Below are positions 23,061 to 45,392 of a stretch of 64,000 bases of DNA, in pieces. Position 1 is the stretch's first letter. Each line of letters begins with the position of its first letter. The translations under genes were made by a program, and so were the position numbers. The stretch covers positions 44,599-108,598 of the forward strand of contig JAEYON010000068.1 in NCBI GenBank assembly GCA_023411645.1, written 5' to 3'. The stretch comes from Bacillota bacterium. Its GTDB lineage: Bacteria; Bacillota; Clostridia; Acetivibrionales; DTU013. The notes beneath the pieces were generated by a model, which did no database searches, was not told the DNA's origin, and worked only from the letters and a program-made list of their open reading frames with translations.

Positions 23061-23075
23061 ATGTTTCCTCCTATT

Positions 23076-23210: not shown

Positions 23211-23341
23211 TATTAATAAATATATTGTAACAAAGGCCTCTCCCCAATTTCCAGACTATATTTATGGCAGAGAAGGAAATATGGTACAATATATGAAGGA
23301 ATGAGGTATTTGCAAATAAATTGGGTCGGGTAGGTGGAAAT

Positions 23342-24124: not shown

Positions 24125-24244
24125 TTCCGAAAGGGATTATTTGGACGTTATTATGAATATCACCGATTCAGGGCATGATATATCGAGGCGGGCAGCAAGC
24201 TTTGTTTGCGCGTTATAAATGCTTGGAATGGTGATATTTGTATA

Positions 24245-30200: not shown

Positions 30201-33085
30201 AGGTCAATGAAATGGAAGACATGGAGATGGTTGAATGGGCAATAAAAGGCCATGAATTTTGGAAGATGAAAGGTCTGATGATAGATCTTGTTCTGGTGGT
30301 GAATAAGAAAGAAGGCTATTCACAGCCGCTGAATGATCAGATCAGAAATATCATTGCCGCAAGTCATGCAAGAGAAAGCATCAATCATTACGGGGGCGTG
30401 TTTATCAGAAATACCGCCGAGATGGATCAGGCGCAGGTGACATTGCTCTATACGGTGGCCAAAATAGTCATAAAGGACAGCATCGAAGCATTGAAAGGCC
30501 GTGTGAAGGAACTGCGCATTTTATTAGATCGGACTCCTCCGGCGGTTGTCAGCAGCAAACCGGAAAAAGTGCAGCCTATTTTTGTGCATCAGCCCGCTAA
30601 TGAAAGAAAACTATTGTTTTTTAACGGCATCGGCGGATTTTCCGCAGATGGAAAGGAATATGTGATCAGGCTGCCCGGAGGTTCGCACACACCTGCGCCA
30701 TGGTCGAATATCATTTCAAATAAAAAATTCGGTTTCCTGGTTACGGAAAGCGGAGGCGGCTATACATGGGCGGAGAACAGCCGGGAATTCAAACTGACGC
30801 CATGGTCCAACGATCCTGTAACAGACTGGCAAGGTGAGGTTTTCTATATGTGCGATACCCATCAGAAGTGCCATTGGACACTGACTCCATCGCCGGCTGG
30901 CGATAATGAGCTTTATACGATAAGGCACGGTCATGGTTACAGTATTTTTGAACACAACAGCCATGGACTCAGTCAGTCTCTGACCATGTTTGCGGCGCTG
31001 GATTCACCGGTCAAGATCTGCCTTGTTACGATTACTAATATTACCGGAAGAAAAAGGGATCTGACCATCACCTATTATACCAGACCGGTGTTAGGTGTTG
31101 ATGAAAACCAAACGTCACCATATATCGTCACGTGGCGGGATGAAAGAGGGGTCCTTTTTGCTGAAAATAAATACAACAATGAGTTCAGAGGACGGGTTGC
31201 GTTTTTGTCTACGAATATAAAAGATTCTTCTGTGACCGGCGACCGGATTTCATTTATCGGCCAATCAGGAGACCTCTCCGAGCCGATGGCCCTGACAGGT
31301 GAAACCCTCGGGGGAGTGACTGGAGCGGGGATCGATCCTTGTGCTGCCATCATGGGAAACATAAAACTGGAGCCGGAGGAGGAAGTCAGTGTTGTCTTCC
31401 TGCTCGGAAGCGGAGAAAATGCAAAACATGCAGCAGAGCTTGCCGCCCGGTTCAGTGATATACAGACGGCCTCTGATGAGCTGGATAGGGTAAGAGAATA
31501 CTGGAGGAGAATACTGGAGGCCATACAGGTGCATACGCCGGATGATTCTTTTGATGTAATGATAAACGGATGGTTTATGTATCAGACAATCGCATGCAGG
31601 ATTTGGGCGAGATCAGGTTATTATCAGGCAGGGGGCGCATATGGCTTCAGGGATCAGCTTCAGGACAGTATGTCGCTGCTGAATACATGGCCTTTGATGG
31701 CCAGGGATCAAATTTTGCTGCATGCTTCAAGGCAGTTTGAAGAAGGGGATGTACAGCACTGGTGGCATATGGAGGGGGGTAAGGGAATCCGTACAAGGTA
31801 TTCGGATGATTTACTCTGGCTTGCTTATGTTACTGCAGAGTACATTGAGAAGACCGCAGACACATCCATCCTGTATGAACAGGTGCCTTTTCTGAAGGGC
31901 AGCATTCTGGTTGAAGGAAATGATGAGAAATATGAGCAGCCCCAAATCTCGGATAAAGTTGCCCGTGTATATGAGCACTGCACTCTAGCAATTGACAGAT
32001 CTCTGGCCACAGGACCTCATGGGTTGCCACTCATAGGCAGTGGCGACTGGAATGACGGAATGAATACGGTCGGCAATAAAGGTATGGGGGAAAGTGTCTG
32101 GCTTGGTTGGTTTCTGATCTCCATACTAAAAAAGTTCATTCCTGTCTGCCGGCTTATGGAGGATTTTGATAGAGCTCAGGCATACCGTGAAGCAACTGAC
32201 CGACTTCAGGAAAACATGGAAAGGAACGCCTGGGATGGAAGCTGGTATAGAAGGGCTTACTTTGATGATGGCACACCGCTGGGTTCAGTTCATAATTCAG
32301 AATGTATGATTGATTCTATTTCCCAGTCCTGGTCTGTTATATCAGGGGCAGCAAAGCCGCACCGGATGGAGGAGGCAATGGATGCAGTCCAAAAGTATCT
32401 GGTAGACAGCAATGAGGGGATCATCAAATTGCTGACACCGCCCTTTGACAAAGGGGACCTGCATCCCGGATATATTAAGGGATATGTACCCGGCGTCAGG
32501 GAAAACGGCGGTCAATACACCCATGCGGCCACATGGGCAGTTATGGCTTTTGCGCTGCTCGGTAAGGGAGATAAGGCAAGCGAGTTGTTCCATATGTTGA
32601 ATCCGGTAAATCATACCAGAACAGAACTTGAATATTCCAGATATAAAACGGAGCCTTATGTCATAGCGGCTGATGTCTATTCGGTACTTCCTCATACAGG
32701 CCGCGGCGGATGGACTTGGTATACAGGAGCGGCAGGGTGGCTTTATAAGGTAGGCCTGGAAAACATCGCCGGATTCAGGAAAAAAGGAGACAGATTGCAT
32801 ATCAATCCATGCATACCAAAGAATTGGGACGGATTTGAGATCGATTACCGTATGGAGCAGGCTGTCTACCACATTCAAATAAAAAACCCCGACAGCTTGA
32901 ACTGCGGAGTTTCATATATTGCCGTAGATGGTAAGCCGTGTCTGGGCGGTTTTATTATCCTTGAACGGAGTGGATTCCACAGGGTCGAAGTTATCATGGG
33001 CACACCGCCTGTATCTGATCAAGATGCCGAATCCAATCCGGAGTCCGAGACATATGTGACAGGATCAAGCATTGGAAATTCATAG
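24245..33085 (+). CDS. Cyclic beta-1,2-glucan synthase-like giant protein (Cgs/ChvB/NdvB family: TM segments, GT84-like transferase, GH94-like phosphorylase)
   Basis: About 2946 aa from ATG 24245 (the ORF-track TTG 24206 gives 2959 aa). Hydrophobic segments near residues 15-35, 430-480 and 850-1010. Transferase motifs VITLDADSNLP and QHRWVRGDWQ. C-terminal GH94-type motifs RYSDDLLWL, GSGDWNDGMN, ENGGQYTHAATW and GGWTWYTGAAGW. Confidence 0.8.
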   Translation: MGLFIATTYVILSGVIIYLLILISRRKADRCVEVRDTILATEELERHAIEIARSHPVMKSAKSLHWLVRRLNSNYSFIVGIYKALNIDARESFPSAPAAEWLLDNFYIIEEQVKLIRRNLSRGRYSKLPVLKEGYLKGYPRVYAIALEMVAHSNGGIDDRIITTFIHAYQTQTMLSIAELWAFPIMLRIAVLESIRNVCEKIHTSRIEWHKAEELASHILTRKPDEQEIKQLLDDQFSEGKLVTSSFTEHLVQRLRKAGKGNSSVTALMDAYLEKEHSSIEKMTAEEHQMQAEMQVAIGNSITGLRLISELDWSEMFEALSHVEQILRKDPSGVYGQMDFESRDYYRHGVEKLARAFNVSEIHVTNKAIGCAKAGAGNPPQDHVGYYLIGKGRETLVALLEKSSKRRWVFSFASLKKPKRLYAAIILSLTAFLVCFFTYYALSRNNAQSFLWPFVTVLLTLIPCSEFAISVTNTIFGHVYRPTMMPKLELKDGIPNELAAFVIVPTLLTSPGRAEELLRQLEVYFLANREKNLYFALVGDFKDAPSQTQEKDEGIVSAVLNGVEELNGKYSADGHDIFFYVHRKRSYSKSQDRWMGWERKRGAVLEFNRLLRGETDTGFNVISGDVSQLSDIRYVITLDADSNLPMGTAKRLIGTMAHPLNKACVDEETETVTSGYGLLQPRICVSIAGANRSLFTKIFAGQGGIDPYTTAVSDIYQDIFDEGIFTGKGIYEVDVYRRVLENRIPDNKVLSHDLLEGCYLRAGLASDIELVDSYPSGYQSYTARQHRWVRGDWQLLPWLAGRVEKLNGNKVKNTLSGLSKWKIADNLRRSLIAPSLLLLLIAGIGFLPGSNLVWIGFVILVSSTPLTTGFLNVLLSGNLLYFSGKTNSTVITGIRAAFYQSVLMLMLIPHQTWIMADAVIRTIYRTFISHKNMLEWVTAADVEASAKNSPGTYLRKMWFVFPAAVALAGAAALSPEGLGIVAVIVTLWLLSPWVAYWISKPIEKRTRSLSIEDNAMLRRMSRKTWRYFEDFAGETDHFLPPDNYQEDPPKGVAHRTSPTNIGLLLISILSAADMGFIGWKSLVERLEKTISTIEKMEKWKGHLYNWYDTVTLETLRPIYVSTVDSGNLVGYLIVVREGLKEFFKKKIPEPNLVLGLKDTLDLVCKEERTDIGSKLRQALSEPSLVLGEKSGDLRNWLGILKELTGWCSSLAADHRHKSSKWLPKLTETVEEFANELIMFYPYLERPELLNILEPAPSGTEAIFQDVSQAISNIDMYKPATPSELLKRYQTVIGLIGQLLDRQDYRKDHIWAEHAQILNDMLREAQRRIEGSIQEVHNLTRRISVLIDETEFTPLFDHKRMLFSIGYNVEEGRLSKSYYDLLASEARQASYIAIARGEVDRRHWMRMGRKLTAADGGKGLVSWTGTMFEYLMPLLIMRNYENTLFDETYSFAVRVQKKYGKQHGIPWGISESGYSALDFNLNYQYKAFGVPELGLKRGLANDMVTAPYASMLALNVSGISAVENLKQLADLGADGLWGYYEAIDFTPSRLDKDASYYIVKSYMAHHQGMSLAAMNNFFNSNILQERFHSDPVINSAELLLQEKIPEKVLYTREFSKDSFVRLKKSDQTEGMVVRTFGLPGTLPPNVNILSNGVYNVMVTDGGSGYSKNSNMDVTRWEADYFTKNGFYIFIKNVNSNVGWSATLDPLDVEPEKYRVVFSPDKAEYVRRDGNLETHLEVTVSAEDNAEVRMVSVTNHSNHIRIVEFTSYLEAVLAPGHEDAAHPAFSKLFVKTEFVPQQSCLLAVRKQRTEEKKPLWLMHTMVVDSGSVIGDLQYETDRMKFIGRNRNISNPKALEPDQPLSNSEGSVLDPVMSLRRRVEIAPGHTVKVVYTVAVAHTRQQALELAEKYNDYRTSRRVFELSWTRSQVENRYLGLENKQIEFYLELIPFILYDSPLRREHAGYIANNTGAQQELWPFGISGDIPVILVEVNEMEDMEMVEWAIKGHEFWKMKGLMIDLVLVVNKKEGYSQPLNDQIRNIIAASHARESINHYGGVFIRNTAEMDQAQVTLLYTVAKIVIKDSIEALKGRVKELRILLDRTPPAVVSSKPEKVQPIFVHQPANERKLLFFNGIGGFSADGKEYVIRLPGGSHTPAPWSNIISNKKFGFLVTESGGGYTWAENSREFKLTPWSNDPVTDWQGEVFYMCDTHQKCHWTLTPSPAGDNELYTIRHGHGYSIFEHNSHGLSQSLTMFAALDSPVKICLVTITNITGRKRDLTITYYTRPVLGVDENQTSPYIVTWRDERGVLFAENKYNNEFRGRVAFLSTNIKDSSVTGDRISFIGQSGDLSEPMALTGETLGGVTGAGIDPCAAIMGNIKLEPEEEVSVVFLLGSGENAKHAAELAARFSDIQTASDELDRVREYWRRILEAIQVHTPDDSFDVMINGWFMYQTIACRIWARSGYYQAGGAYGFRDQLQDSMSLLNTWPLMARDQILLHASRQFEEGDVQHWWHMEGGKGIRTRYSDDLLWLAYVTAEYIEKTADTSILYEQVPFLKGSILVEGNDEKYEQPQISDKVARVYEHCTLAIDRSLATGPHGLPLIGSGDWNDGMNTVGNKGMGESVWLGWFLISILKKFIPVCRLMEDFDRAQAYREATDRLQENMERNAWDGSWYRRAYFDDGTPLGSVHNSECMIDSISQSWSVISGAAKPHRMEEAMDAVQKYLVDSNEGIIKLLTPPFDKGDLHPGYIKGYVPGVRENGGQYTHAATWAVMAFALLGKGDKASELFHMLNPVNHTRTELEYSRYKTEPYVIAADVYSVLPHTGRGGWTWYTGAAGWLYKVGLENIAGFRKKGDRLHINPCIPKNWDGFEIDYRMEQAVYHIQIKNPDSLNCGVSYIAVDGKPCLGGFIILERSGFHRVEVIMGTPPVSDQDAESNPESETYVTGSSIGNS

Positions 33086-33696
33086 TTTTCCTGCCCCAAC
33101 TCAGCTAACAGATTTATTGTGTTATGAAAGTCGGAGATCAGATCCAACCCATTTGCCTCCAGGATATGCTGAAGCTGGCCGTTTTCTCTATACATCCACC
33201 TTGTATATCTGGAACGCTCCAGAATGTAATCCTTAATCACATTCTGGAAATCGGCCTGTCTTAGAATCTCTTCACATATAAAGAAGTTACAGACCGTAGT
33301 GCGGAATCGCACCGGTAATTTACAACCGGAGCCTGGGCTAACAAACGGACAGGTCCTGAAAAATATGGTATGATCTCTTATGCTGCCGGTTTCTAAAAGC
33401 TTTCCGGATGATATGTATTTTTCGTATGCTTCCTTATCAAAAGGCCCTTTGGCATAGATATTGTATCTATTCACAATAGTGCCGGGATTTGACAATATAA
33501 TTTCGAGTGTCTTATGCCCACTATCCAGTATTGCCATTCTTTGAATATCTACCAGTGTAAACTCGGGAAAATAATGACAGCAGCCTCTGTTTTTAATACT
33601 GCATAAGCTTTTTCCCATCAGACTGTTACAGCTGGAACAATCTGTACAGCCAATCTGCGGAATACCGTGATCAAAAAAAATATAAATATTTCCCAT
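33019..33696 (-). CDS. YkgJ-type cysteine-cluster (CxxCxxCC-like) protein
   Basis: 225 aa. N-terminal CTDCSSC...GCCHYFP and later RTCPFVSPGSGCKLPVRFRTTVCNFFIC, resembling the UPF0153/YkgJ pattern. SD AGGGGG sits 7 nt before the ATG. The 3' end overlaps the glucan-synthase 3' end by 67 nt. Confidence 0.5.
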   Translation of the reverse strand: MGNIYIFFDHGIPQIGCTDCSSCNSLMGKSLCSIKNRGCCHYFPEFTLVDIQRMAILDSGHKTLEIILSNPGTIVNRYNIYAKGPFDKEAYEKYISSGKLLETGSIRDHTIFFRTCPFVSPGSGCKLPVRFRTTVCNFFICEEILRQADFQNVIKDYILERSRYTRWMYRENGQLQHILEANGLDLISDFHNTINLLAELGQENYEFPMLDPVTYVSDSGLDSAS

Positions 33697-33728
33697 AAAT
33701 CGCCCCCTGATAAATTTTTTACTTCTAC

Positions 33729-33757
33729 ATTATAGTTTCGGTGAGGTCTCTCAGCAA
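33729..33757 (-). promoter_or_regulatory. Sigma-A-type promoter of the Cys-cluster protein gene
   Basis: Minus strand: TTGCTG (33757-33752), 17 nt, TATAAT (33734-33729). Confidence 0.4.
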
Positions 33758-33810
33758 TACCTTTTTTAATTTAAAATACCTTTTTTAATATAAAATACCT
33801 TTTTTTAAAC
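33756..33810. repeat. 19-bp tandem direct repeat, about 2.8 copies
   Basis: AATACCTTTTTTAATTTAA (33756-33774), AATACCTTTTTTAATATAA (33775-33793), AATACCTTTTTTTAAAC (33794-33810). Exact 19-bp period of the AATACC cores (33756, 33775, 33794). Confidence 0.85.
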
Positions 33811-34018
33811 GCGAAAGAATGCTGTAAATGGGAAATTATGTTGTAAACGTAACAAAATTGTTATACAATTGTCATTACAATAGTCAAATATTTTCTGTAG
33901 ACGGTATTTTGTTCCAGGCTTATCCCGTTTTTTAAGACAAGGTAGTACGGCTTTAGCATTACTTCCGTATATAAGGTATGCTGGCCGCCGGTTTTTTTAC
34001 TGCGGGAGGTGAGTATCC

Positions 34019-34204
34019 TTGAAGAGAACGATGAGTAGGTGTTATGAAAATTGCATCAATAAACTGCGTAATGAACTTCACAATCTGATCGATTCAGAAA
34101 AAATTACCAGTAAAATTGTACAAAAGAGAAGTCGGGAGCTTGACCATTTGATTTTCTTGTATTACCAGCAGTGTAGAAAAGATCAGGAATTAAAGGAGCC
34201 GTAA
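34019..34204 (+). CDS. Spo0E-family sporulation regulatory aspartyl-phosphate phosphatase-like protein
   Basis: 61 aa. INKLRNELHNLI...SRELDHLIFLYY matches the Spo0E-family SQELDxLI helix-hairpin pattern. SD GGGAGGTGA lies before TTG 34019. Confidence 0.5.
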   Translation: MKRTMSRCYENCINKLRNELHNLIDSEKITSKIVQKRSRELDHLIFLYYQQCRKDQELKEP

Positions 34205-34992
34205 AAGAGAATTCCTAAAAATGGCAGCACAATAATTGCAGTGGCTGGATGACCGCTACCTGCCGTTGATATATGTTGGCCAAAGATTGTCTGGCCTGCA
34301 ATGATGTAACCGGTTATCAGACCCAAAACCAGGCCGCCGACCGCTCCCGCTGTGATCATGAGCGGGTGGCGATGGTCGCAGGAAGGTTCGCTGATATCGT
34401 CGGGATACATAATGTCTGTCCAAAGCAATTTTTTCCTTTTTACGAGTGAATAGCACAGTGGGAGAAGGATAGGCCCCAAGACCAGTGTGATTACTACGTT
34501 ATTGAGCGTAATAATTATGGCCAGAGCTGAGAAGCTTGCCATATTCAGAATATCAAGTCCCCATGCGATTGTTACCGAGCAGGCGATACTTGCAATAAAG
34601 CTGATTATGCCGAATTGTGCCAGCTTCCATGGAGTATTGATATTAGGTGTTTTGTCCTCGCCATATCTTGGCTTGATATGATTCCACAGTTTATATGGGA
34701 TATAGGCATACATAAAATTTCCGATAAAACCGAAAAAAGAACCGGCCGACAGCGTGCCGAAACAATCTCCGCCAAGATTCCCGAGTGCGGAGCCCCAGGC
34801 ACCCGCTGGCCCGAATAGCAGCCCGAATATAACCGGCAAAAGCGATGCCGGCCTTATTTCTGTAATACCCGGAATAACAGGTATCGATTTGGTAGGAAGT
34901 AAAAGCAGCATGTATATACCCGCACATAATACGGTTAATGCAACCATGTTTCCGTACTTCCACATCCTTACGATTTCCTTCACAAAATGCAC
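34183..34992 (-). CDS. Polytopic membrane protein, ECF-transporter S-component-like
   Basis: 269 aa with about 6 hydrophobic segments. RPASLLPVIFGLLFGPAGAWGSALGNLGGD resembles S-component signatures. The start is uncertain (GTG 34992, GTG 34983 with SD GAGAGGTG, or ATG 34965). The substrate is unknown. Confidence 0.5.
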   Translation of the reverse strand: MHFVKEIVRMWKYGNMVALTVLCAGIYMLLLLPTKSIPVIPGITEIRPASLLPVIFGLLFGPAGAWGSALGNLGGDCFGTLSAGSFFGFIGNFMYAYIPYKLWNHIKPRYGEDKTPNINTPWKLAQFGIISFIASIACSVTIAWGLDILNMASFSALAIIITLNNVVITLVLGPILLPLCYSLVKRKKLLWTDIMYPDDISEPSCDHRHPLMITAGAVGGLVLGLITGYIIAGQTIFGQHISTAGSGHPATAIIVLPFLGILFYGSFNS

Positions 34993-35330
34993 CTCTCGGT
35001 AATTGCAGCAATTGGTAATCCCGCAATTATTGTACCATTTTCCAGTTCAAAATGTCTATATTGCGGCTGATAATGTTTATTGTAACCTATCTCAGAACGG
35101 TTGCAGTTTTTGCATCAAACTTCAGAATAGGCTTGCTGTAGTGGATAATTATTTTATGTTCAGTGCTCAAAATTTCAGGTATGATAGTGCTTTTTCAACA
35201 AAAAAGCTGTGATTTACGCAGAAAAGTGGCCTATAACTATAAAAACACACCATAATACTTGCAAAAATGAGCAAGGTATGAAAACTGCTAGTACTACTTA
35301 CAAAACATACTAAACATATCAAAATTGGTG

Positions 35331-35359
35331 TTGACAATTTATTTTCACCGGAATATAAT
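35331..35359 (+). promoter_or_regulatory. Strong sigma-A-type promoter of the transsulfuration pair
   Basis: TTGACA (35331-35336), 17 nt, TATAAT (35354-35359). The inverted repeat AAATTG-N7-CAATTT (35322-35340) overlaps the -35. Confidence 0.6.
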
Positions 35360-35413
35360 ACCGACATAACATATATATTTACTATATTATTCTTAGGGGA
35401 ATCACGATGCTTT

Positions 35414-36589
35414 TTGAAAGAGGTGTTAGCTATAGGGAATTATGGGAAAATTGAAACTGCACTTATTCATGACGGTATTTATGGGGACAAACAAACAGGT
35501 GCTGTAAATACCCCCATCTATCAGACTTCAACATATGAGCAGGAAGAACTCGGCAAACATAAAGGATGGGAATATTCCCGTACGGGCAACCCAACGAGAG
35601 CTGCACTGGAAGCGCTGATAGCCGCTCTGGAGGGTGGTGCCGCCGGGTATGCTTTTGCGTCCGGTATGGCAGCTACCACCGCCGTGCTCAGTCTCTTCCA
35701 AAGCGGAGACAAAATTGTTATCTCCAGCAATGTATACGGCGGCACATTCCGCGTACTTGACAAGGTTTTCAAGCACTTCGGTATAAATTATATCATTGTG
35801 GACACAACGGATCTGCCCGTACTTGAGCAGGCGCTGACACCGGATGTGAAGGCAATCCTGATTGAAAGCCCGGCCAATCCGCTGCTGACTATCACCGACA
35901 TCGCAGCGGTTGCCGGACTCTCCAGGCAAAAGGGTATTCTTCTGATTGTTGACAATACTTTTATGACGCCTTACCTTCAGCGGCCGCTGGAGCTAGGAGC
36001 GGACATTGTCCTGCATTCCGCTACTAAATACTTGGGCGGACACAGTGATTTGATTGCAGGTTTAGTTGCAGTTAAATCGAAAGAGCTGGCCGAGAAGCTG
36101 CATTTTATCCAGAACGCCACCGGCGGTATTTTACAGCCATTTGACTCGTTCCTTCTTATCCGCAGCATAAAAACATTGGGTGTTCGGATGGATCGCCATG
36201 TGGAAAACGCGGAGCGGATCGCTCAAATTTTAAAATCGCATGAGGCGGTCAAAACGGTGTATTATCCGGGACTCCCAGATACACAGGGGTATGAAATCAA
36301 TAAAAAGCAAGCCCAAAATGGCGGTGCGATGATTTCTTTTGAGTTGGAAGATACTTATGATTACCGGAAATTTTTTAAAAGGCTGAAGCTTATTGCACTG
36401 GCGGAATCATTGGGCGGTGTTGAGTCCCTCGCATGTCACCCGGCAAGTATGACTCACGCTTCCATTCCAAAGGAAATACGTGAGAAGGTGGGTATCACAG
36501 ATGGACTTATTCGTTTATCAGTCGGGCTTGAACATTATGAAGACCTTGCATCAGACCTGAAGCAGGCAATTGAGGGGGCACGAATGTGA
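35414..36589 (+). CDS. Cys/Met-metabolism PLP enzyme (cystathionine gamma-lyase / gamma-synthase / beta-lyase family, MccB/MetB/MetC-like)
   Basis: 391 aa. IETALIHDG, TPIYQTSTY, NPTRAALEALIAALEGG and HSATKYLGGHSD (PLP lysine). There is no in-frame ATG near the N-terminus, so the start is uncertain (TTG 35414 or GTG 35423). Confidence 0.88.
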   Translation: MKEVLAIGNYGKIETALIHDGIYGDKQTGAVNTPIYQTSTYEQEELGKHKGWEYSRTGNPTRAALEALIAALEGGAAGYAFASGMAATTAVLSLFQSGDKIVISSNVYGGTFRVLDKVFKHFGINYIIVDTTDLPVLEQALTPDVKAILIESPANPLLTITDIAAVAGLSRQKGILLIVDNTFMTPYLQRPLELGADIVLHSATKYLGGHSDLIAGLVAVKSKELAEKLHFIQNATGGILQPFDSFLLIRSIKTLGVRMDRHVENAERIAQILKSHEAVKTVYYPGLPDTQGYEINKKQAQNGGAMISFELEDTYDYRKFFKRLKLIALAESLGGVESLACHPASMTHASIPKEIREKVGITDGLIRLSVGLEHYEDLASDLKQAIEGARM

Positions 36590-37494
36590 TTTACGAAGAC
36601 ATGCAGCAATTGATTGGAAATACACCCCTTGTCCGGTTATCGCACTCCGGCTTTCCTGAAACGCTGCGTATATACGCCAAGCTGGAGCTATATAATCCTT
36701 CCGGCAGTGTCAAGGACAGAATCGGCAAATACATGATTGAAGATGCCGAGCGCCGGGGAATCCTGAAGCCAGGATCCACCATCGTGGAAGCAACCGCCGG
36801 AAATACCGGGTTGGGCATCGCTTTTGCCGCACTAAATAGAGGCTACCGTCTGATATTTGTGGTTCCAACAAAGTTCTCACAGGAAAAGCAAACCTTACTC
36901 CGGGCTTTGGGTGGAGAAATAATTAACACACCTTTGGAAGACGGAATGATGGGCGCAGCGCAAAAAGCCGAACAAATCCGTATCGACATTCCGGGAGCGG
37001 TTACATTAGGACAGTTTAAAAACCAAAGCAACCCGCAGGCGCATTATGAAACCACAGGCCCTGAAATCTGGAGTGAAATGAAAGGACAGATTGATTTTGT
37101 GGTAGCTGGGGCAGGCAGCGGTGGCACCTATACCGGTATATTGCGTTACTTGAAAGAACAAAACCCAGATATCAGAGGTGTTTTGGCTGATCCCATCGGT
37201 TCCACCATGGGTGGCGGTGAACACGCAAACTATGACATTGAAGGCATCGGTAACGATTTTATTGCCGAGACGATGGATATGTCACTTGTGGACGATGTAA
37301 TCAAGATCAGCGATGCCGAAGCAATGGATGAAGTAAAGCAACTGGCCCTAAAAGAAGGAATCATTGCCGGATCTTCCTCAGGTGCGGCGTTGGCGGCGGT
37401 CAAACATCTGGCGCAAAAGGTTTCCGCAGGCAATATTGCTACTATTTTCCCCGACCGGGGAGACCGGTATTTTAGTAAAAACATATTTGGATAA
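36586..37494 (+). CDS. CysK/CysM/MccA-family PLP enzyme (cysteine synthase or O-acetylserine-dependent cystathionine beta-synthase)
   Basis: 302 aa. IGNTPLVRL, NPSGSVKDRIG and TAGNTGLGIA. It overlaps the upstream stop by 4 nt; the alternative start is ATG 36601. Confidence 0.88.
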   Translation: MIYEDMQQLIGNTPLVRLSHSGFPETLRIYAKLELYNPSGSVKDRIGKYMIEDAERRGILKPGSTIVEATAGNTGLGIAFAALNRGYRLIFVVPTKFSQEKQTLLRALGGEIINTPLEDGMMGAAQKAEQIRIDIPGAVTLGQFKNQSNPQAHYETTGPEIWSEMKGQIDFVVAGAGSGGTYTGILRYLKEQNPDIRGVLADPIGSTMGGGEHANYDIEGIGNDFIAETMDMSLVDDVIKISDAEAMDEVKQLALKEGIIAGSSSGAALAAVKHLAQKVSAGNIATIFPDRGDRYFSKNIFG

Positions 37495-37521
37495 AAAATC
37501 AAATTATTACCTTAAAAAACC

Positions 37522-37550
37522 TTGACTAGAAAAAGATGATATGCTATACT
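37522..37550 (+). promoter_or_regulatory. Sigma-A-type promoter of the leader ORF / nitrogenase-like operon
   Basis: TTGACT (37522-37527), 17 nt, TATACT (37545-37550). The inverted repeat TATGCT-N7-AGCATA (37540-37558) overlaps the -10. Confidence 0.55.
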
Positions 37551-37597
37551 AAAGCATAGTAAATCTATATGTTTAATCAGAAATAGGAGAGTCAACT

Positions 37598-37756
37598 ATG
37601 AACAAGCATATAAACACCGTCAATACAGTTGTTTGCAGCGTTTCTGCCATGTGCATGATGCGAGTGTCTTGTTGCATCAGTATGTCAATGATGCGAATGT
37701 CTTGCTGCACCTGTATGCCCATGTGTTGTGACAATCCTATTCCCAAACCCGCATGA
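37598..37756 (+). CDS. 52-codon Cys/Met-rich leader ORF (candidate attenuation leader peptide; shorter than the 60-aa ORF-track cutoff)
   Basis: SD AGGAGA (37585-37590) lies 7 nt before the ATG. Translation: MNKHINTVNTVVCSVSAMCMMRVSCCISMSMMRMSCCTCMPMCCDNPIPKPA*, with 9 Cys and 9 internal Met within residues 13-44. An internal 22-nt repeat encodes MMR[V/M]SCC twice. A terminator hairpin starts 13-16 nt after the stop. Confidence 0.6.
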   Translation: MNKHINTVNTVVCSVSAMCMMRVSCCISMSMMRMSCCTCMPMCCDNPIPKPA

Positions 37757-37769
37757 TTTTCCGTCTGTG

Positions 37770-37809
37770 AAAGGCACAGTTCGTGTAAAATGCGGACTGT
37801 GCCTTTTTT
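37770..37809 (+). terminator. Intrinsic terminator / attenuator between the leader ORF and the nitrogenase-like genes
   Basis: GGCACAGT (37773-37780) pairs with ACTGTGCC (37796-37803). The stem extends upward through TCGTG/TGCGG (G-U pairs) to a 5-nt loop and downward via AAA/TTT. T6 follows at 37804-37809. Confidence 0.75.
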
Positions 37810-37902
37810 AATCCTCGAAAAAGCAACTGAAAAAAGCAGCTCTGTGTCGGGCAGGGGCTCGCTACTTGCTGACCACAAATCTCTCAAAACAGGAGGAGAA
37901 TA

Positions 37903-39378
37903 ATGAGCAAAGTCAATTTATCCTTGCCGGAGGTGCAGATCCGGGAAATCCGTATTAACTCAATAACCGGTTACCAGGGCAGTGCCAGGGAATTGGTTGA
38001 CTGCTCCCGCCGCGGACTGAAGGACAAAAACCGATCTTTCAGCCAGTGCCTTGGATGTGCAACCTCCAAGGCGGCTTGTATGACAATTATGGTTCAGGAC
38101 GGCGCGGTCATCAGCCACGGACCGGTGGGCTGCTCGTCCTGCTATCACGAGTTTGCCTTTACCTACCGTGTCAATTCACCGCTGCGGGGCGTGGAAAATC
38201 CTACCCAACGCAAAATCTACTCCACCAATCTGAAGGAGAAGGACACAGTATACGGCGGTGGAAAAAAGCTGGCAAAGACAATCCGTGAGGTTTATAACCG
38301 CACACACGCCAGAGTAATCTTTGTGCTGACAACCTGCGCGGCGGGCATAATCGGCGATGATGTGAACAGCATCTGCGATGAAGCGGAGGATGAACTGGGT
38401 GTTCCCGTGGTGGCGATTTTCTGCGAAGGCTTCAAGTCCAAGGTTTGGACGACAGGTTTTGACGCAGCCTACCACGGCATTGCGCGCAAGTTGATTGAGC
38501 AGCCCCGCCGGCGAAGAAATGACATCATCAATGTCATAAACTTTTGGGGATCTGATATTTTTAAAGACTGGTTCGCGGAATTCGGTGTGATACCCAACTA
38601 TATCACACCCTACTCCACACTCGAAAGCATCCGTTGGTCATCCGAGGCGGCAGCGACGGTGCAAGCTTGCTCGACGCTGGGCTCCTATCTGGGTGCCGCG
38701 CTGGAACAGCAATTTGGTGTTCCCGAGCTGCCGACAGCACCGCCTTACGGCATCGCCCAAACCAACCGCTGGTTCCGCGCCCTTGGCAAGTTGCTGGGAA
38801 AGGAAGATGTGGCCGAACGGGTGATTGCTGAAAAGAGGGAAAAATATCTGCCCCAGATAGAAGCAATCCGGGAAAAGCTCACGGGGAAAACCGCCTATGT
38901 CACAGCAGGCGCCGCCCATGGTCATGCTCTTCTGGGTGTGCTGGCAGAACTTGGCATAAAAGCTCAGGGAGCCGCCATCTTCCACCATGACCCGCTTTAC
39001 GACAACGGCGTGCCCGAGGGCGATCAGTTGGCTCAGCGAGTAAGCGACTTTGGCGATGTTCCCAACTTCAATGTCTGCAACAAGCAGGAGTTTGAACTGG
39101 TCAATTCGCTCAACCGTATCCGCCCTGACCTTCTTCTGGCACGGCATGGCGGCATGACACTCTGGGGCGCAAAGCTCGGCATCCCGTCGCTGCTCATCGG
39201 CGATGAACACTACAGTATGGGATACGAGGGATTGGTCAAATATGGTCAGCGAATAATTGAAACGCTGGAAAATGATGAATTTGTCAAGAATCTGGAGCGG
39301 CACGCCATCAACCCCTACACCAAATGGTGGCTGTCTCAGGAACCATATACATTTTTGCAGGGAGGTTCGGGTAAATGA
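37903..39378 (+). CDS. Nitrogenase-like component 1, alpha (NifD/NifE-like) subunit
   Basis: 491 aa with SD AGGAGGAG. ISHGPVGCSSC and VLTTCAAGIIGDDV match NifD P-cluster Cys contexts. By-eye alignment also places VQACSTLGSY and GDEHYSMGYEG at the NifD Cys275 and His442 cofactor-ligand positions. Confidence 0.85.
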   Translation: MSKVNLSLPEVQIREIRINSITGYQGSARELVDCSRRGLKDKNRSFSQCLGCATSKAACMTIMVQDGAVISHGPVGCSSCYHEFAFTYRVNSPLRGVENPTQRKIYSTNLKEKDTVYGGGKKLAKTIREVYNRTHARVIFVLTTCAAGIIGDDVNSICDEAEDELGVPVVAIFCEGFKSKVWTTGFDAAYHGIARKLIEQPRRRRNDIINVINFWGSDIFKDWFAEFGVIPNYITPYSTLESIRWSSEAAATVQACSTLGSYLGAALEQQFGVPELPTAPPYGIAQTNRWFRALGKLLGKEDVAERVIAEKREKYLPQIEAIREKLTGKTAYVTAGAAHGHALLGVLAELGIKAQGAAIFHHDPLYDNGVPEGDQLAQRVSDFGDVPNFNVCNKQEFELVNSLNRIRPDLLLARHGGMTLWGAKLGIPSLLIGDEHYSMGYEGLVKYGQRIIETLENDEFVKNLERHAINPYTKWWLSQEPYTFLQGGSGK

Positions 39379-40718
39379 GCAAAGTCGAATTGATAGAACA
39401 GGAGCGTTACGTCTGCGCTATTGGGGCTCTGCAAAGCGTGGTTGCTATTCCCCGTGCCGTGCCCATTTTGCATTCCGGCCCCGGGTGCGGGGACATGGTT
39501 CAGGGCTTCTTTGGGCACTCCACCGGATATGCTGGAGGCAGCACCTCTCCATGCACAAATTTTTCAGAAAAAGAAGTAGTGTTTGGCGGCATCGATCGTC
39601 TGCGGCAAATCATTGCCAACACATACAAAGTATTGGATACGGATTTACAAGTGGTACTTACAGGCTGCACGGCGGGCATAGTAGGCGACGATGTAGATAG
39701 CCTCGTGGAGGAGTTTCGCAGCGAGGGCAAACCCATCGTGTCTGTAGAAACGGCTGGATTCAAGTGCAATAACTTTGAGGCGCACAGCTTGGTGGTTAAT
39801 GCAATCATCGATCAGTATGTGGATGGTTTTTCTGAAGAGAATCCTGCATGCAGTGAAAAGAATACAGTGAACCTGTTTGCCTCCCTTCCATACCAGGACC
39901 CGTTCTGGAAAGGAAACCTCGCTGAATACAAGCGGCTGCTTGCCGGTATCGGGCTCAAGGCTCAAGTACTGTTCGGGCCGCAGTCTGGCGGAGTAAAGGA
40001 GTGGCAGCAGATTCCCCGTGCGAACTTCAATATCCTTATTTCCCCATGGTATGGACTGCCTATTGTCGAGAACCTGGAACAAAAGTATGGTCAGCCATTC
40101 ACACATTTTATGCATATTCCTATTGGGGCGAACGCAACAGAAAAATGGCTTAGACAGGTCATTGCCTTCGCCAGGGAGCAGGGTGCGGAAATTGATGAGG
40201 AAAAAGCCGAAGCCTTTTTACGCAGTGAAATTCATGCCTATTATGAAGAAATTGACAGCCTGGCTACCTTCTTGTTGGAATTCCGCTACGGACTGCCGAA
40301 TCATGTTCATATTTTCCACGACGCAGGATATGTTCTGGGCCTATCCAAGTTTCTTCTTCACGAGGTTGGGGTAGTGCCCAAAGAGCAATTTGTTACCGAT
40401 AATACACCGGAGCGATTCCATGAAGGGATAATCGCAGATATAAAGAGCACTTCCGATAAGCGGGACATCCCGTTGTTTTTCGAGTCGGATGCAGGACGGG
40501 CGCAAGACATTCTGCGCGGCATTTCCCATAGCGGTCGCGGACTCATTATTGGCAGCGGCTGGGAAAAGGAACTGGCCGCAGAAAAGAATACGGACTTTCT
40601 TACTGCGGCGCTGCCATCTTCTTACCGTTTGGTGCTTACAACCAACTACGCCGGTTTTAGCGGCGGATTGCGTGTGATTGAGGACATTTACAACACGGTT
40701 CTGCCGACGTACCGATAG
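39375..40718 (+). CDS. Nitrogenase-like component 1, beta (NifK/NifN-like) subunit
   Basis: 447 aa. Overlaps the upstream stop by 4 nt. YVCAIGALQS, ILHSGPGCGDMV and VLTGCTAGIVGDDV match NifK P-cluster Cys contexts. Confidence 0.85.
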   Translation: MSKVELIEQERYVCAIGALQSVVAIPRAVPILHSGPGCGDMVQGFFGHSTGYAGGSTSPCTNFSEKEVVFGGIDRLRQIIANTYKVLDTDLQVVLTGCTAGIVGDDVDSLVEEFRSEGKPIVSVETAGFKCNNFEAHSLVVNAIIDQYVDGFSEENPACSEKNTVNLFASLPYQDPFWKGNLAEYKRLLAGIGLKAQVLFGPQSGGVKEWQQIPRANFNILISPWYGLPIVENLEQKYGQPFTHFMHIPIGANATEKWLRQVIAFAREQGAEIDEEKAEAFLRSEIHAYYEEIDSLATFLLEFRYGLPNHVHIFHDAGYVLGLSKFLLHEVGVVPKEQFVTDNTPERFHEGIIADIKSTSDKRDIPLFFESDAGRAQDILRGISHSGRGLIIGSGWEKELAAEKNTDFLTAALPSSYRLVLTTNYAGFSGGLRVIEDIYNTVLPTYR

Positions 40719-40727
40719 GAGGCCGCT

Positions 40728-41063
40728 ATGAACGCACGGATTGCTTTCGCCAGTACGGGCGATTATATTGATCAGCACTTTGGCTCCGCACGGTATTGGC
40801 AGGTGTACGATCTTGCAGAAGATGGAACCTGCCGGCATGTTGAAACCCGGAGGACACAGGCCAAATGTCAGGGAAACTGCGAAGGCGGTTTTGACCACTT
40901 GCTCAGGACGCTGGAGGACTGTGAAGCCGTATTCGTAAGCAAAATTGGTCAATCCGCAGCGGCGTTTATGATTGGCCGCGGTAAGCGGGTATTTGAGGCG
41001 GCGGGGGCAATCGATGAAATTATTGATCAAATTTCGGGTGAAAACCTGTTGGAGGAGGGCTAA
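40728..41063 (+). CDS. NifX/NafY/NifB-C-terminal-type FeMo-cofactor-binding domain protein
   Basis: 111 aa. RIAFASTGDYIDQHFGSARYWQVYDL...AVFVSKIGQSAAAFMIGRGKRVFEA is the typical dinitrogenase cofactor-biosynthesis domain pattern. Confidence 0.8.
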   Translation: MNARIAFASTGDYIDQHFGSARYWQVYDLAEDGTCRHVETRRTQAKCQGNCEGGFDHLLRTLEDCEAVFVSKIGQSAAAFMIGRGKRVFEAAGAIDEIIDQISGENLLEEG

Positions 41064-41066
41064 ACC

Positions 41067-41942
41067 ATAGCTTTTTCATTTGAGGAATTAACAAAATTCC
41101 ATCCCTGTTTTGCGGTGGGAGCAAAAAACAATAAAGGACGCGTCCATCTGCCGGTTTCACCAGGCTGCAACATCAACTGCCTCTTTTGCGACCGCAGGCT
41201 GAACAATATCGATCAGCGGCCTGGCGTCACTTCGAGAATTATTTCCCCGCAGGAAGCTGTGGATGTCGTGCGTAAGGCGGTTGCCCTCTGCCCGGGTATC
41301 ACGGTGGCAGGAGTGGCCGGACCGGGAGACACTTTGGCGACGCCATATGCACTGAGAACCTTTCGGTTAATCAAAGCGGAGCTGCCTGATATCATCAAGT
41401 GCATGAGCACAAACGGGTTGCTTTTACCGGACTTCGCAGATGAAATCATTGATGTGGGCATAGATTCTCTCACTGTCACAGTCAACGCCGTTGACGCGGA
41501 AATACAGTCTCAAATCTGCAGCGGCATAACATACCAAGGCAAGCGCTATGAGAACACTACCGCTGCCGAGATCCTGATTACCAATCAGCTTGCCGGGATC
41601 AAGAAGGTTGCAGATGCCGGAATCACTGTCAAGGTCAATACCGTGCTGATTCCCGAAATCAACGTGGGGCATGTGGCGGAGGTCGCAAGGACAGTCAGTG
41701 AAGTGGGTGCGCGGATTTATAATATTATTCCGCTGATCCCCCAACACAAGCTCGCGTGGTGTTCCGCACCCGGCTGCGATCTGATTAGTAGTACACGCAT
41801 AGAAGCCGAGCGGTACATCAAGGTTTTCCGGCATTGCCAGCGGTGCCGAGCCGATGCGGCGGGAATCCCCGGCGGCGCAGATGTGTCGGAACAACTTTTT
41901 ATTAGCTCTGTAAGGCTGGAAAATACTTTCTCGCACGGCTGA
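41067..41942 (+). CDS. NifB-like radical SAM cofactor-maturation protein (start uncertain: ATA 41067 with SD, or GTG 41115 as in the ORF track)
   Basis: RVHLPVSPGCNINCLFCDR (CxxxCxxC), GVAGPGDTLA, CMSTNGLLLP, KVNTVLIPEIN and HCQRCRADAAGIPGG align with NifB. The in-frame codons 41064-41114 encode ...FHPCFAVGA, matching the NifB N-terminal HPC motif, yet contain no ATG, GTG or TTG. Confidence 0.8.
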   Translation: MAFSFEELTKFHPCFAVGAKNNKGRVHLPVSPGCNINCLFCDRRLNNIDQRPGVTSRIISPQEAVDVVRKAVALCPGITVAGVAGPGDTLATPYALRTFRLIKAELPDIIKCMSTNGLLLPDFADEIIDVGIDSLTVTVNAVDAEIQSQICSGITYQGKRYENTTAAEILITNQLAGIKKVADAGITVKVNTVLIPEINVGHVAEVARTVSEVGARIYNIIPLIPQHKLAWCSAPGCDLISSTRIEAERYIKVFRHCQRCRADAAGIPGGADVSEQLFISSVRLENTFSHG

Positions 41943-41975
41943 GATAAATTAGATGATGAAAGGTGGTGGTGTTAT

Positions 41976-42857
41976 ATGTGCAGCGACTGTGATATGTGCG
42001 ACACGGCCGACCATACCTTTATGCCGATGATGGCGAAAATCAACTTGTGTTTGTGGAGGGGGAAAGATGATATGGGATATATAGAAATAAAAGATCTGCA
42101 CAAGGCCTTCCATATTCGAGGACAGTCGCTCGATGTTTTGAAGGGTGTAGATCTCAGCATAGAAAAAGGCGAAATTTTCGGCATTATAGGTTATTCCGGT
42201 GCGGGAAAATCAACGCTGGCACGATGCATTAATCGGCTTGAGGAGGCTGATAAAGGCGAAATCATAGTGGACGGAGTAGATATCAGATCCTTAAGCAAAA
42301 AGAATCTGTTGCGGGAACGCCGCAACATCGGAATGATTTTTCAACAGTTCAATCTGTTTGAGGCTCAAACTGTGTACGAAAACATCTCTTATCCTTTAAA
42401 AATATCCGGGGTGCCGAGCCGTGAAATAAGAGAGCGTGTACTTGAAGCGGCAGAAGTTGTGAGTTTATACGACAAGCTAGACGCTTACCCGGGCGGATTG
42501 TCCGGAGGACAAAAACAACGAGTCGGAATCGCGAGGGCTATCGTCGGAAGACCGAATGTATTACTAAGCGACGAGGCGACAAGCGCGCTTGATCCTCAGA
42601 CTACGCTTTCGACACTCGAATTATTAGAGGAAATCAACGCAAAGACAGGTATCACTATATTGATGATAACTCACGAGCTTGACGTAATCAAGTACAGTTG
42701 CACACGGATGGCCGTGCTTGAAAACGGTATCATTATCGAAAGCGGCAAAACAACCGAGGTTTTTGGAAACCCCAAAAGCAAAACGGGAGAACTATTCTTT
42801 AAGGTTTACACCGAATTTCGGAATCAAAAGGAATACGCAGGAGGTGATGGAATTTGA
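41976..42857 (+). CDS. metN: Methionine-type ABC transporter ATP-binding protein (alternative start ATG 42072)
   Basis: Walker A GYSGAGKST, signature LSGGQKQRV and Walker B LLSDEATSALD. The canonical MetN N-terminus MGYIEIKDLHKAF begins at 42072 (SD GGAGGGGG). The ORF also opens at ATG 41976 (SD AGGTGGTGG), adding a 32-aa Cys/Met-rich extension. Confidence 0.88.
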   Translation: MCSDCDMCDTADHTFMPMMAKINLCLWRGKDDMGYIEIKDLHKAFHIRGQSLDVLKGVDLSIEKGEIFGIIGYSGAGKSTLARCINRLEEADKGEIIVDGVDIRSLSKKNLLRERRNIGMIFQQFNLFEAQTVYENISYPLKISGVPSREIRERVLEAAEVVSLYDKLDAYPGGLSGGQKQRVGIARAIVGRPNVLLSDEATSALDPQTTLSTLELLEEINAKTGITILMITHELDVIKYSCTRMAVLENGIIIESGKTTEVFGNPKSKTGELFFKVYTEFRNQKEYAGGDGI

Positions 42858-43564
42858 GCTTGCTTGATACCCCGCTATGGGATGTCATTAAGGGCAGTTT
42901 CGCTTATGAGGTATGGGAAAGGGTCACTCCGGCGATTCTTGAAACACTTTATATGACAGGCGTAGCGTCATTAATAACATTGGTGTTCGGGCTCGCTCTC
43001 GGAATACTTATGACGGTGACCAACCCCCATGGACTAATACCTCTCAGAGTGTTTTATGCAGTATCGGGATGGTTTATCAATATCTTGCGCTCACTGCCGC
43101 AGATGGTGATGATAATTTTACTGATACCTGTAGCACGGTTCTTTTTTGGAAAAAGCTATGGAACGAACCCTTGTATGATAGCTATAGCCGCTTGTCTGAT
43201 TCCGATGTATGCGCGTATTGTCGAAAGCAGCATACTTGAAATCTCAAAGGGCAAGATCGATGCCGCAAAGTCAATGGGAAGCACGTATACTCAGATTATA
43301 TTTCGGATTCTGTTACCGGAAACACTTCCATCGCTCATCCGAGGCTTTACGGTAACGGTTATCGCCGTCTTGTCAATGACCGCACTAGCTGGAATGTTCG
43401 GCGCGGGAGGTGTCGGAGACATAGCGGTCAGGTTCGGTTATCAGCGGTTTCAGCATGATGTGCTGTTTGCAGCAGTTTACGTTTTAATTGCACTGGTGCA
43501 GATTATCCAGTTTCTTGGGGATTTCTTATCAAAGAGAATCCTCCGGAAACGAAATCTGATTTAA
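42854..43564 (+). CDS. metI: Methionine-type ABC transporter permease
   Basis: 236 aa, about 5 TM segments, MetI-like EAA region (KIDAAKSMGSTYTQIIFRILLPE). Overlaps the metN stop by 4 nt. Confidence 0.85.
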   Translation: MSLLDTPLWDVIKGSFAYEVWERVTPAILETLYMTGVASLITLVFGLALGILMTVTNPHGLIPLRVFYAVSGWFINILRSLPQMVMIILLIPVARFFFGKSYGTNPCMIAIAACLIPMYARIVESSILEISKGKIDAAKSMGSTYTQIIFRILLPETLPSLIRGFTVTVIAVLSMTALAGMFGAGGVGDIAVRFGYQRFQHDVLFAAVYVLIALVQIIQFLGDFLSKRILRKRNLI

Positions 43565-43598
43565 TAAAAAATTCAACACAAATAAAGGAGAATAAACC

Positions 43599-44462: not shown

Positions 44463-45335
<873 letters not shown>

Positions 45336-45356: not shown

Positions 45357-45392
45357 ACCCCGCGAAGTCACATAACTGTGATTTTGCGGGGT
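45357..45392 (+). terminator. Terminator-like hairpin ending the nitrogenase-like operon
   Basis: ACCCCGC (45357-45363) pairs with GCGGGGT (45386-45392), with inner TCACA/TGTGA pairing. The trailing TATTTATA is a weak U-tract. Confidence 0.55.

Follow-up and report, generated by a model that had tools for sequence, protein, structure and literature searches.

A candidate leader-peptide attenuator sensing cysteine and methionine in front of a nitrogenase-like operon of a Clostridia-type Bacillota bacterium

In a 64,000-nucleotide stretch of contig JAEYON010000068.1 from a Bacillota bacterium of the class Clostridia (assembly GCA_023411645.1), referred to here as the window, a short open reading frame (ORF) rich in cysteine and methionine codons and an intrinsic terminator stand in front of an operon of nitrogenase-like genes. 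This locus is probably a ribosome-mediated (leader-peptide) transcription attenuator that senses cysteine and methionine, a reading drawn from its sequence elements and from their conservation in related loci, and it would report the supply of charged tRNA-Cys and tRNA-Met. Attenuation of this kind had been proposed from the window sequence alone (hereafter the original prediction), and the proposal is supported by the conserved elements, by coding-type substitution in the leader ORF and by a covarying antiterminator hairpin that includes the stop codon.

The leader ORF (Table 1) contains nine Cys and ten Met codons, nine of the latter internal. Its enrichment in these two residues is far above chance, and a six-frame scan of the 64-kb window found it to be the sole short frame with at least six Cys or Met per 12 residues. 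The promoter in front of it, one of the two best plus-strand promoter matches between 33000 and 48500 in a promoter scan, leaves a 5' untranslated region (UTR) of about 45 nt. The original prediction had placed the promoter, the Shine-Dalgarno sequence, the ORF with its nine Cys and nine internal Met codons, a 22-nt repeat and the terminator hairpin correctly. The repeat proved to be the centre of a longer, 33-nt tandem duplication, which occurs only in the window and in the near-identical relative L204 (2747-2812), with a single copy in all other family members, and which looks like a recent doubling of sensor codons.

At the protein level, the leader peptide has no match in Pfam, NCBIfam or the PDB (NCBIfam searched to E <= 10), and searches with the peptide alone and with a nine-sequence profile matched just three short proteins, because gene callers rarely call such ORFs. 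In two relatives, a 45-49 aa ORF on the opposite strand is annotated over the leader (L203, 801-938, minus strand; L204, 2671-2820, minus strand); the automatic callers miss the Cys/Met ORF in both, and the antisense ORF called there is spurious. A minus-strand ORF of the window at 37573-37887 (104 aa), which has no Pfam match, was likewise treated as spurious. As a separate observation, the Shine-Dalgarno region (37582-37594) is complementary to the 3' end of the leader ORF (37729-37741) over 13 nt (85%, duplex z -3.2). This helix was rejected as a family feature, being significant just in the window and L026; in the window, the pairing might limit re-initiation on the leader.

Relatives were drawn from 80 loci encoding NifD-like proteins of 55-90% identity, mostly in Clostridia-type genomes and metagenome-assembled genomes, to which further contigs were added via protein look-ups and one metagenome scan; the loci carry numbers with the prefix L. 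A leader with the core C-[MLI]-M-R-x-[SFC]-C-C, here called family A, was found in L069, L081, L086, L202, L203, L204, L010, L024, L026, L015 and L016, with more diverged copies in L011, L014 and L034. In all members examined in detail, a Cys/Met-rich ORF of 29-52 codons starts with an ATG behind a Shine-Dalgarno sequence and is followed by the terminator, and a GGAG, GAGG or AAGG motif lies within 22 nt 5' of the ATG in 13 of the 13 examined. A similar promoter (TTGAC-17-TAnnAT with TG) stands at the matching position in L069, L081, L086, L010, L024, L026, L015, L016, L011 and L014; it is weaker in L202 and not evident in L203. In the metagenome scan, which used the pattern TGYATGATGCGNNNNTNNTGYTGY, nearly all of the matches listed were chance occurrences inside genes, and L086 was the sole true new member among them.

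The leader appears to be read in codons, as judged from the way in which it changes. Across 28 pairwise comparisons, differences fall on first, second and third codon positions 280, 246 and 491 times, respectively, so that third-position changes are about twice as frequent as those at the first or second. Furthermore, length differences between related leaders amount to whole codons, and the conserved core alternates synonymously between TGC and TGT for Cys, CGA, CGC and CGT for Arg, and TCT and TCC for Ser. By these substitutions, the leader ORF evolves as a coding sequence. One close relative deserves separate mention: in L203 (847-972), whose NifD-like protein falls within the 90%-identity cluster of the window, the otherwise invariant core Arg is replaced by Cys (CMMCISCC), and the lower stem of the terminator carries one A·C mismatch.

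Behind the leader ORF, the terminator folds with a free energy of -28.4 kcal/mol (z -6.4), a value that none of 200 shuffled sequences reaches. A simple terminator scan did not list this hairpin, which was found by folding; the original prediction had recognised it, but with its 17-bp stem it is stronger than was then stated. Among 11 relatives, RNAalifold predicts 13 pairs in the terminator, of which five show compensatory changes. A covariance model of the attenuator, built from the terminator and run over 84 sources and 772 kb, found the element solely behind leader ORFs and returned no members beyond those already known, save the weak L034 and L014.

The alternative structure becomes visible in nascent-RNA folds, for which the transcript was cut mid-way through the 3' arm of the terminator, mimicking a polymerase that nears the U-tract. 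The lowest-energy fold of the cut window transcript (-15.7 kcal/mol, against -5.3 for the partial terminator at that stage) is a composite hairpin of about 13 bp, built from three helices named P-a, P-b and P-c, which ties up the terminator in the lower part of its 5' arm and the upper part of its 3' arm. The complementary words CCGCAT and ATGCGG, to which the original prediction had assigned the antiterminator, are present and their 6-bp pairing (P-a) is real, but it forms merely the base of this three-part hairpin and not the whole antiterminator. The cut transcripts of 11 of the 11 family A members tested share this architecture as their lowest-energy fold (-15.7 to -21.7 kcal/mol), whereas the pairing sequences themselves vary by subfamily: CCGCAU:AUGCGG, CCCGUGA:UUACGGG, CCG-GAAAU:AUUUC-CGG, GUCCG:CGGAC plus A/U pairs, and GAAUUU:AAAUUC.

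A plain MAFFT alignment left the P-a helix out of register between subfamilies, and a structure-guided, N-padded alignment took its place, which biases the following counts towards structure. In this alignment, 92% of cells pair, compared with 19-52% when the partners are slid by one to three columns; in four pairs both partners have changed, and two of 500 shuffles attain the covariation score. In L010 and L024, moreover, a U/A/U combination has become C/G/C across the 5' strand of the antiterminator and the two arms of the terminator, and such a coordinated change in three strands is the pattern expected of two mutually exclusive helices.

The position of the stop codon links the ORF to this switch. 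The stop codon (37754-37756) lies inside P-a, and 20 nt separate P-a from the end of the last sensor codon (37729). A terminating ribosome would consequently mask the 5' strand of the antiterminator, while a ribosome stalled at the Cys and Met codons would leave the antiterminator free. The footprint of a ribosome extends about 12-15 nt downstream of the A site. At the stop codon, it would cover P-a, P-b and most of the 5' strand of P-c, thereby leaving the terminator 5' arm free for its 3' arm. This spacing recurs elsewhere: the distance from the stop to a conserved CUG is 7-10 nt in the six relatives read, and, except in L015 and L016, the last sensor codon is followed by 5-11 codons without Cys or Met before the stop is reached. 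The stop codon lies in or beside the antiterminator 5' strand not only in family A, but also in L052 and in a second, unrelated family, B (L073, L074), which provides convergent support for a common mechanism.

Such unrelated leaders, that is, Cys/Met-rich short ORFs followed by terminators and sharing no sequence with family A, were found in at least eight loci (L018, L046, L052, L073, L074, L075, L077 and L080). The gene that follows is NifB-like in L073, L074 and L077 (leader, for example, MCMMCQMRMF), MetY-like in L052, an Acetobacterium (leader MCCCMPVGMFNCC), and NifD-like in L018; L046, Eubacterium oxidoreducens, has a Cys_Met_Meta_PP gene in this position, and L080 an ABC ATPase gene. 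The search of related Clostridia for Cys/Met-rich ORFs with terminators that the original prediction had proposed thus finds them both within family A and outside it. Its further question, whether codon composition rather than the peptide is conserved, finds a positive answer at larger evolutionary distance: in the distant loci, Cys/Met composition is kept where the peptide sequence is lost, which favours a codon sensor.

The genes behind family A leaders vary. A NifD-like gene follows in the window, L204, L010, L024, L026 and L011; a Cys_Met_Meta_PP gene, in several cases resembling O-acetylhomoserine sulfhydrylase, in L069, L203, L014, L034, L086, L081 and L202; and DUF4418 plus an FtsX-type permease in L015 and L016. 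Cys_Met_Meta_PP, radical S-adenosylmethionine (SAM), ABC ATPase and DUF4418/FtsX genes were assigned by Pfam, and NifD-like genes from ORF translations. Where the first downstream gene was checked (all loci except L075), every one belongs to sulfur metabolism or to an NFL cluster. The link to a nitrogenase-like operon that had originally been drawn therefore holds in the window but is not exclusive, and the variety argues that the leader is a module of sulfur operons generally, rather than one tied to nitrogenase-like genes.

Taken together, these elements suggest the following sequence of events. Transcription would begin at the leader promoter, where it is probably also repressed via the adjacent palindrome (37552-37578), and the leader would also receive transcripts that read through from the transsulfuration genes upstream. 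A ribosome would load at the Shine-Dalgarno sequence and translate the 52-codon ORF. With Cys and Met plentiful, it would reach the stop at 37754, and its footprint would cover the antiterminator 5' strand (37749 to about 37769); with this strand masked, the terminator would fold and RNA polymerase would halt ahead of the nitrogenase-like genes. Under a shortage of Cys or Met, the ribosome would stall within the block that holds the 18 sensor codons, upstream of the antiterminator and no closer to it than 20 nt, and P-a, P-b and P-c could fold co-transcriptionally and occupy the 5' arm of the terminator in its lower part and the 3' arm in its upper part. With the antiterminator formed, the polymerase would read into the NifDK-like, NifB, NifX, ABC-transporter and NifH genes, the attenuator acting jointly with the promoter-proximal operator on what we infer to be a nitrogenase-like sulfur-salvage operon.

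Several observations weigh against attenuation by a Cys/Met-sensing ribosome. The alignment used for covariation was drawn up with knowledge of the structure, from sequences that are few and related (effective number 4.4). The antiterminator of the window barely beats shuffled sequences (z -1.7; 17 of 300 fold as well), and over single sequences the shuffle z-scores range from -0.8 to -3.5, those of L202 and L011 not being significant. The lowest-energy fold of the full-length RNA is the terminator (-28.4 versus about -15.7 kcal/mol), so that read-through must be kinetic. When the leaders were folded up to the antiterminator 5' strand, no family-wide pairing and no conserved pause or anti-antiterminator hairpin of the 1:2 type emerged, nor was any conserved pairing of the coding region with the antiterminator 5' strand found when it was sought; the antiterminator would be free without translation, unlike in trp. 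Met-Arg and Cys-Cys are invariant in the nine-peptide family A alignment despite synonymous change, a hint that the peptide is constrained in more than its codon composition, and the Cys/Met content of L011 is weaker (7 of 41). Finally, L080 has a different geometry: its Cys/Met-rich short ORF (3235-3390; CMMCMCSM) is followed by a terminator stem that starts 11 nt past the stop, and folding detects no antiterminator. There, a ribosome at the stop codon would reach into the terminator itself, pointing to a logic that is different or inverted.

The invariant residues raise the question of whether the product, rather than its translation, is what matters. The ORF might encode a functional Cys/Met-rich small protein, such as a metal-, sulfur- or iron-sulfur-binding protein, a membrane peptide or the precursor of a ribosomally synthesized and post-translationally modified peptide (RiPP), with the hairpin as a leaky terminator that sets the ratio of an abundant peptide to the downstream enzymes. 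Leaky terminators after precursor genes do occur in RiPP operons, the core keeps its amino acids, M, R, C and C being invariant, while its codons change synonymously, and an N-terminal MNK(H/R)IN..NT..CSVSAM is kept among closer relatives. However, distant loci lose the sequence and keep Cys/Met richness together with the stop/antiterminator geometry, the conserved Arg gives way to Cys in L203, and a plain terminator needs no covarying alternative hairpin containing the stop codon. The RiPP version, raised in the original prediction as a SCIFF-type or other radical SAM substrate, finds no precursor family in NCBIfam, whose models include SCIFF and other RiPP precursors. The sole radical SAM enzyme nearby is NifB-like, with RiPP/SPASM-type matches of E 1e-6 or weaker at best; a radical SAM gene is lacking behind the leader in several relatives, and several leaders stand directly before a Cys_Met_Meta_PP gene, without a maturase. 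The SCIFF/RiPP candidate was rejected on these grounds, and a functional small protein in general appears improbable.

The same core could act from within the ribosome as a programmed arrest peptide, in which the nascent chain (core MR..CC), and not tRNA charging, would stall the ribosome in response to a small molecule or cellular state. The geometry would be identical, there is a precedent in Clostridia (CliM; PMC13183943), M, R, C and C are invariant in nine family A peptides, and MRM or GRM motifs recur in the distant leaders L034, L073, L074 and L077. Yet the motif is absent from L052, L080, L014 and L011 and altered in L203 (R to C), and the sole feature common to all leaders is a high density of Cys and Met codons, as a sensor of charging needs; we regard arrest by the nascent chain as very unlikely. 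More improbable still is a switch run by a trans-acting factor (an RNA-binding protein or small RNA) or by transcription speed, with the ORF incidental or untranslated. Repeated UGCAUGAUGCG-like words could serve as protein-binding sites, no pause hairpin was found, and translation of the leader is something that we infer; against this, the start codon, Shine-Dalgarno sequence, frame and stop position are kept through indels in multiples of three, third positions change in excess, unrelated leaders converge on in-frame Cys and Met codons, and the stop-to-CUG distance is held nearly constant in the relatives in which it was read. Somewhat less remote, though still unlikely in our judgement from the sequence, is a dual-function leader in which the peptide itself also acts, either as an arrest peptide tuned by a sulfur ligand or redox state, or as a small, thiol-rich protein that binds metal or sulfur and acts in trans.

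Table 1. Features of the leader and of the operons on either side, in window coordinates.
Feature	Position	Strand	Description	Basis
Leader promoter, sigma-70-type	37522-37550	+	TTGACT-17-TATACT, TG-extended -10	10/12 matches
Palindromic operator-like element	37552-37578		core 18-mer ATAGTAAATCTATATGTT at 37556-37573, directly past the -10	
Shine-Dalgarno sequence	37585-37590	+	AGGAGA, 7 nt 5' of ATG 37598	sequence reading
Leader ORF	37598-37756	+	52 codons + TGA, peptide MNKHINTVNTVVCSVSAMCMMRVSCCISMSMMRMSCCTCMPMCCDNPIPKPA	translation
Putative sensor block	37634-37729	+	residues 13-44; 9 Cys + 9 Met = 18/32 codons	
Tandem duplication	37649-37714	+	33 nt (11 codons), doubling the core MMR[V/M]SCC; copies 37649-37681 and 37682-37714, 82% identical	
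Antiterminator hairpin	37749-37795	+	three parts (P-a, P-b, P-c)	folding of cut transcript
P-a	37749-37754 with 37790-37795		CCGCAU (last sense codon + stop-codon U) with AUGCGG	
P-b	37762-37763 with 37782-37783		CG with CG	
P-c	37765-37769 with 37775-37779		CUGUG with CACAG	
Intrinsic terminator	37770-37809	+	17-bp stem 37770-37786 with 37790-37806, 3-nt loop 37787-37789, U-tract to 37809	folding
Upstream operon	35331-37494	+	promoter 35331-35359 (12/12), operator copy 35368-35385	
Cystathionine gamma-lyase-like gene	35414-36589	+	Cys_Met_Meta_PP	
CysK/CysM-like gene	36586-37494	+	PALP	
Downstream operon, predicted target	37903-45335	+		Pfam, NCBIfam
NifD-like gene	37903-39378	+		
NifK-like gene	39375-40718	+		
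NifX-like gene	40728-41063	+		
NifB-like radical SAM gene	41115-41942	+		NifB TIGR01290, 252 bits
ABC ATPase gene	41976-42857	+		
Permease gene	42854-43564	+		
NlpA/MetQ-like lipoprotein gene	43599-44462	+		
NifH-type Fe protein gene	44478-45335	+		NCBIfam, 459 bits
Strong terminator past the operon	45357-45392			terminator scan

The NifD-like gene starts 94 nt beyond the U-tract, and its own Shine-Dalgarno sequence lies 80-90 nt past the terminator. The nitrogenase-like genes of the window resemble the Mar/NFL systems of PMC13474568, and a sulfur-salvage (Mar-like) role of the operon is suggested by the gene context and by that literature. On the other side, the scan lists merely weak terminator-like hairpins of 5-7 bp between 36586 and 37522, within coding sequence (37445-37468), which agrees with the earlier statement that no terminator separates the transsulfuration genes from the leader.

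A second layer of control is indicated by the palindrome past the -10 of the leader promoter. Its 18-mer core recurs with one mismatch, in flipped orientation, past the -10 of the promoter of the upstream operon (35368-35385, minus strand); the expected count is 0.08, and two matches were obtained in one of 100 shuffles. The flipped copy argues for a DNA site of a dimeric repressor rather than an RNA element. A similar palindrome, AAACATA-N-TATGTTTA, lies past the -10 in many related loci, including L001 and L003, where it is present without leader ORF or terminator. The palindrome is probably the operator of a putative sulfur repressor, and no regulator gene that would explain it is recognisable near the locus.

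Two further leader-like features were noticed among the relatives. One is a second, different short ORF, rich in Cys, Met and Asp (MCSDCDMCD...) and preceded by a strong Shine-Dalgarno sequence, which is absent from the window. In L069 (~7125-7182), L026 (~7329), L014 (~8136), L007 (~8120), L017 (~8090) and L010 (~7218), it occupies the interval that separates the NifB-like gene from a second Cys_Met_Meta_PP gene. It has no terminator after it, and in several loci its reading frame extends into the beginning of the following gene; it may serve as a leader for translational coupling or encode a small protein that binds metal. In L008 (~3800-3960), the region 5' of the NifD-like gene holds a promoter, a long, perfect A/U-rich hairpin and a U-tract (CTGGAGGTTAAAAAACAT...ATGTTTTTTAACCTCCAGTTTTTG) with no Cys/Met ORF, and this hairpin is another leader type for a NifD-like operon. 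Elsewhere in the window, a complete cyclic di-AMP riboswitch (ydaO/yuaA leader; 23060-23218, minus strand, 72.5 bits) is the sole Rfam hit at the gathering threshold, a single ORF of 2959 aa occupies 24206-33085 (plus strand), and in the approximately 2.2 kb at 33100-35330 the sole long ORFs, two on the minus strand of 225 and 269 aa, have neither a Pfam nor an NCBIfam match.

Leader-peptide attenuation is textbook knowledge for the trp, his, leu, thr, ilv and phe operons of enterobacteria, and the thr and ilv leaders sense more than one amino acid. The present locus shares with trpL, hisL, leuL, thrL, ilvL and pheL a leader ORF rich in codons of the pathway, an intrinsic terminator and an exclusive antiterminator that would be masked at the stop. 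It differs from them in the sensing of Cys plus Met, in the NifD-like, MetY-like and transporter genes that would be regulated, in its Clostridia-type Firmicute host, in the composite three-part antiterminator with no conserved 1:2 hairpin detected, and in the repressor-type operator that precedes the leader. In Firmicutes, T-boxes and S-boxes usually control such genes. S-box (SAM-I) and T-box leaders likewise cause premature termination in front of sulfur amino-acid genes that is relieved on shortage, but their sensor is an RNA aptamer or uncharged tRNA and not a translating ribosome. With Rfam, no S-box or T-box was found in the window at the gathering threshold or on the operon strand of 16 related loci, so that none is present to explain the terminator otherwise; a search of 35200-38000 at E <= 10 gave nothing but chance matches resembling microRNAs and small nucleolar RNAs, and the element fits no Rfam family.

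Leader peptides have been reported to be rare in Firmicutes, where a His leader precedes hisS paralogues and hisZ in bacilli (PMC2965389); that rare regular leader-peptide attenuator was likewise predicted, but it concerns another amino acid, other genes and another taxonomic class. Cys-only leaders have been described elsewhere. In mycobacteria, polycysteine leaderless short ORFs act by unmasking a ribosome-binding site (Canestrari et al., 10.1101/834739), and Cys leader ORFs without terminators have been predicted in Actinobacteria (PMC1262725). Runs of Cys codons before sulfur operons, stalling that reports Cys supply and a device shared by several operons (a 'ribulon') are features that these ORFs and the present leaders would have in common. 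The mycobacterial type was nevertheless rejected for this locus, which has a 5' UTR with a Shine-Dalgarno sequence, uses Met codons besides those for Cys, and carries a terminator and antiterminator rather than a duplex sequestering the ribosome-binding site; for the polycysteine ORFs, no intrinsic terminator was found. In the Rhodobacterales, the uORFC-8-2 motif in front of cysS is a candidate attenuator in which two tandem Cys codons are followed by an intrinsic terminator (PMC8632094). It shows no sequence or structure similarity to the leader described here, lacks Met enrichment, has a cysteinyl-tRNA synthetase gene as its target and belongs to alpha-proteobacteria.

A review of Mar/NFL sulfur-acquisition systems describes regulation for Rhodospirillum rubrum alone, with the LysR-type SalR and a PadR-family post-translational regulator (PMC13474568). 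In the open-access and bioRxiv literature, we found neither a leader that reads Met codons, alone or combined with Cys, nor an element of this kind in Clostridia, nor any report on the regulation of nitrogenase-like sulfur clusters in this class. The original claim that a combined Cys and Met leader is undescribed thus stands within that literature, with the restriction that Cys-only leaders were already known from Actinobacteria and Rhodobacterales. The mechanism itself is classical; what is new, as far as we found, is its amino-acid specificity, its occurrence in this host group, the composite form of the antiterminator and the set of genes that would be regulated.

Should the peptide itself act, the leaders, together with the shared operator and the MCSDCDMCD ORFs, would define a Clostridia-wide sulfur regulon read by ribosomes. 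If attenuation by a Cys/Met-sensing ribosome is true, the locus would be the first leader-peptide attenuator known to us that reads Met codons, and the first for Cys and Met together. It would add a third RNA-level sulfur sensor to those of Firmicutes, beside S-box riboswitches and T-boxes, and the leader would represent a compact sulfur-responsive expression switch. It would also offer a first handle on the regulation of Mar/NFL-type sulfur-scavenging clusters in anaerobic Clostridia, in which the presence of the leader would serve as an independent hint that the nitrogenase-like genes behind it are involved in sulfur acquisition and not in nitrogen fixation.

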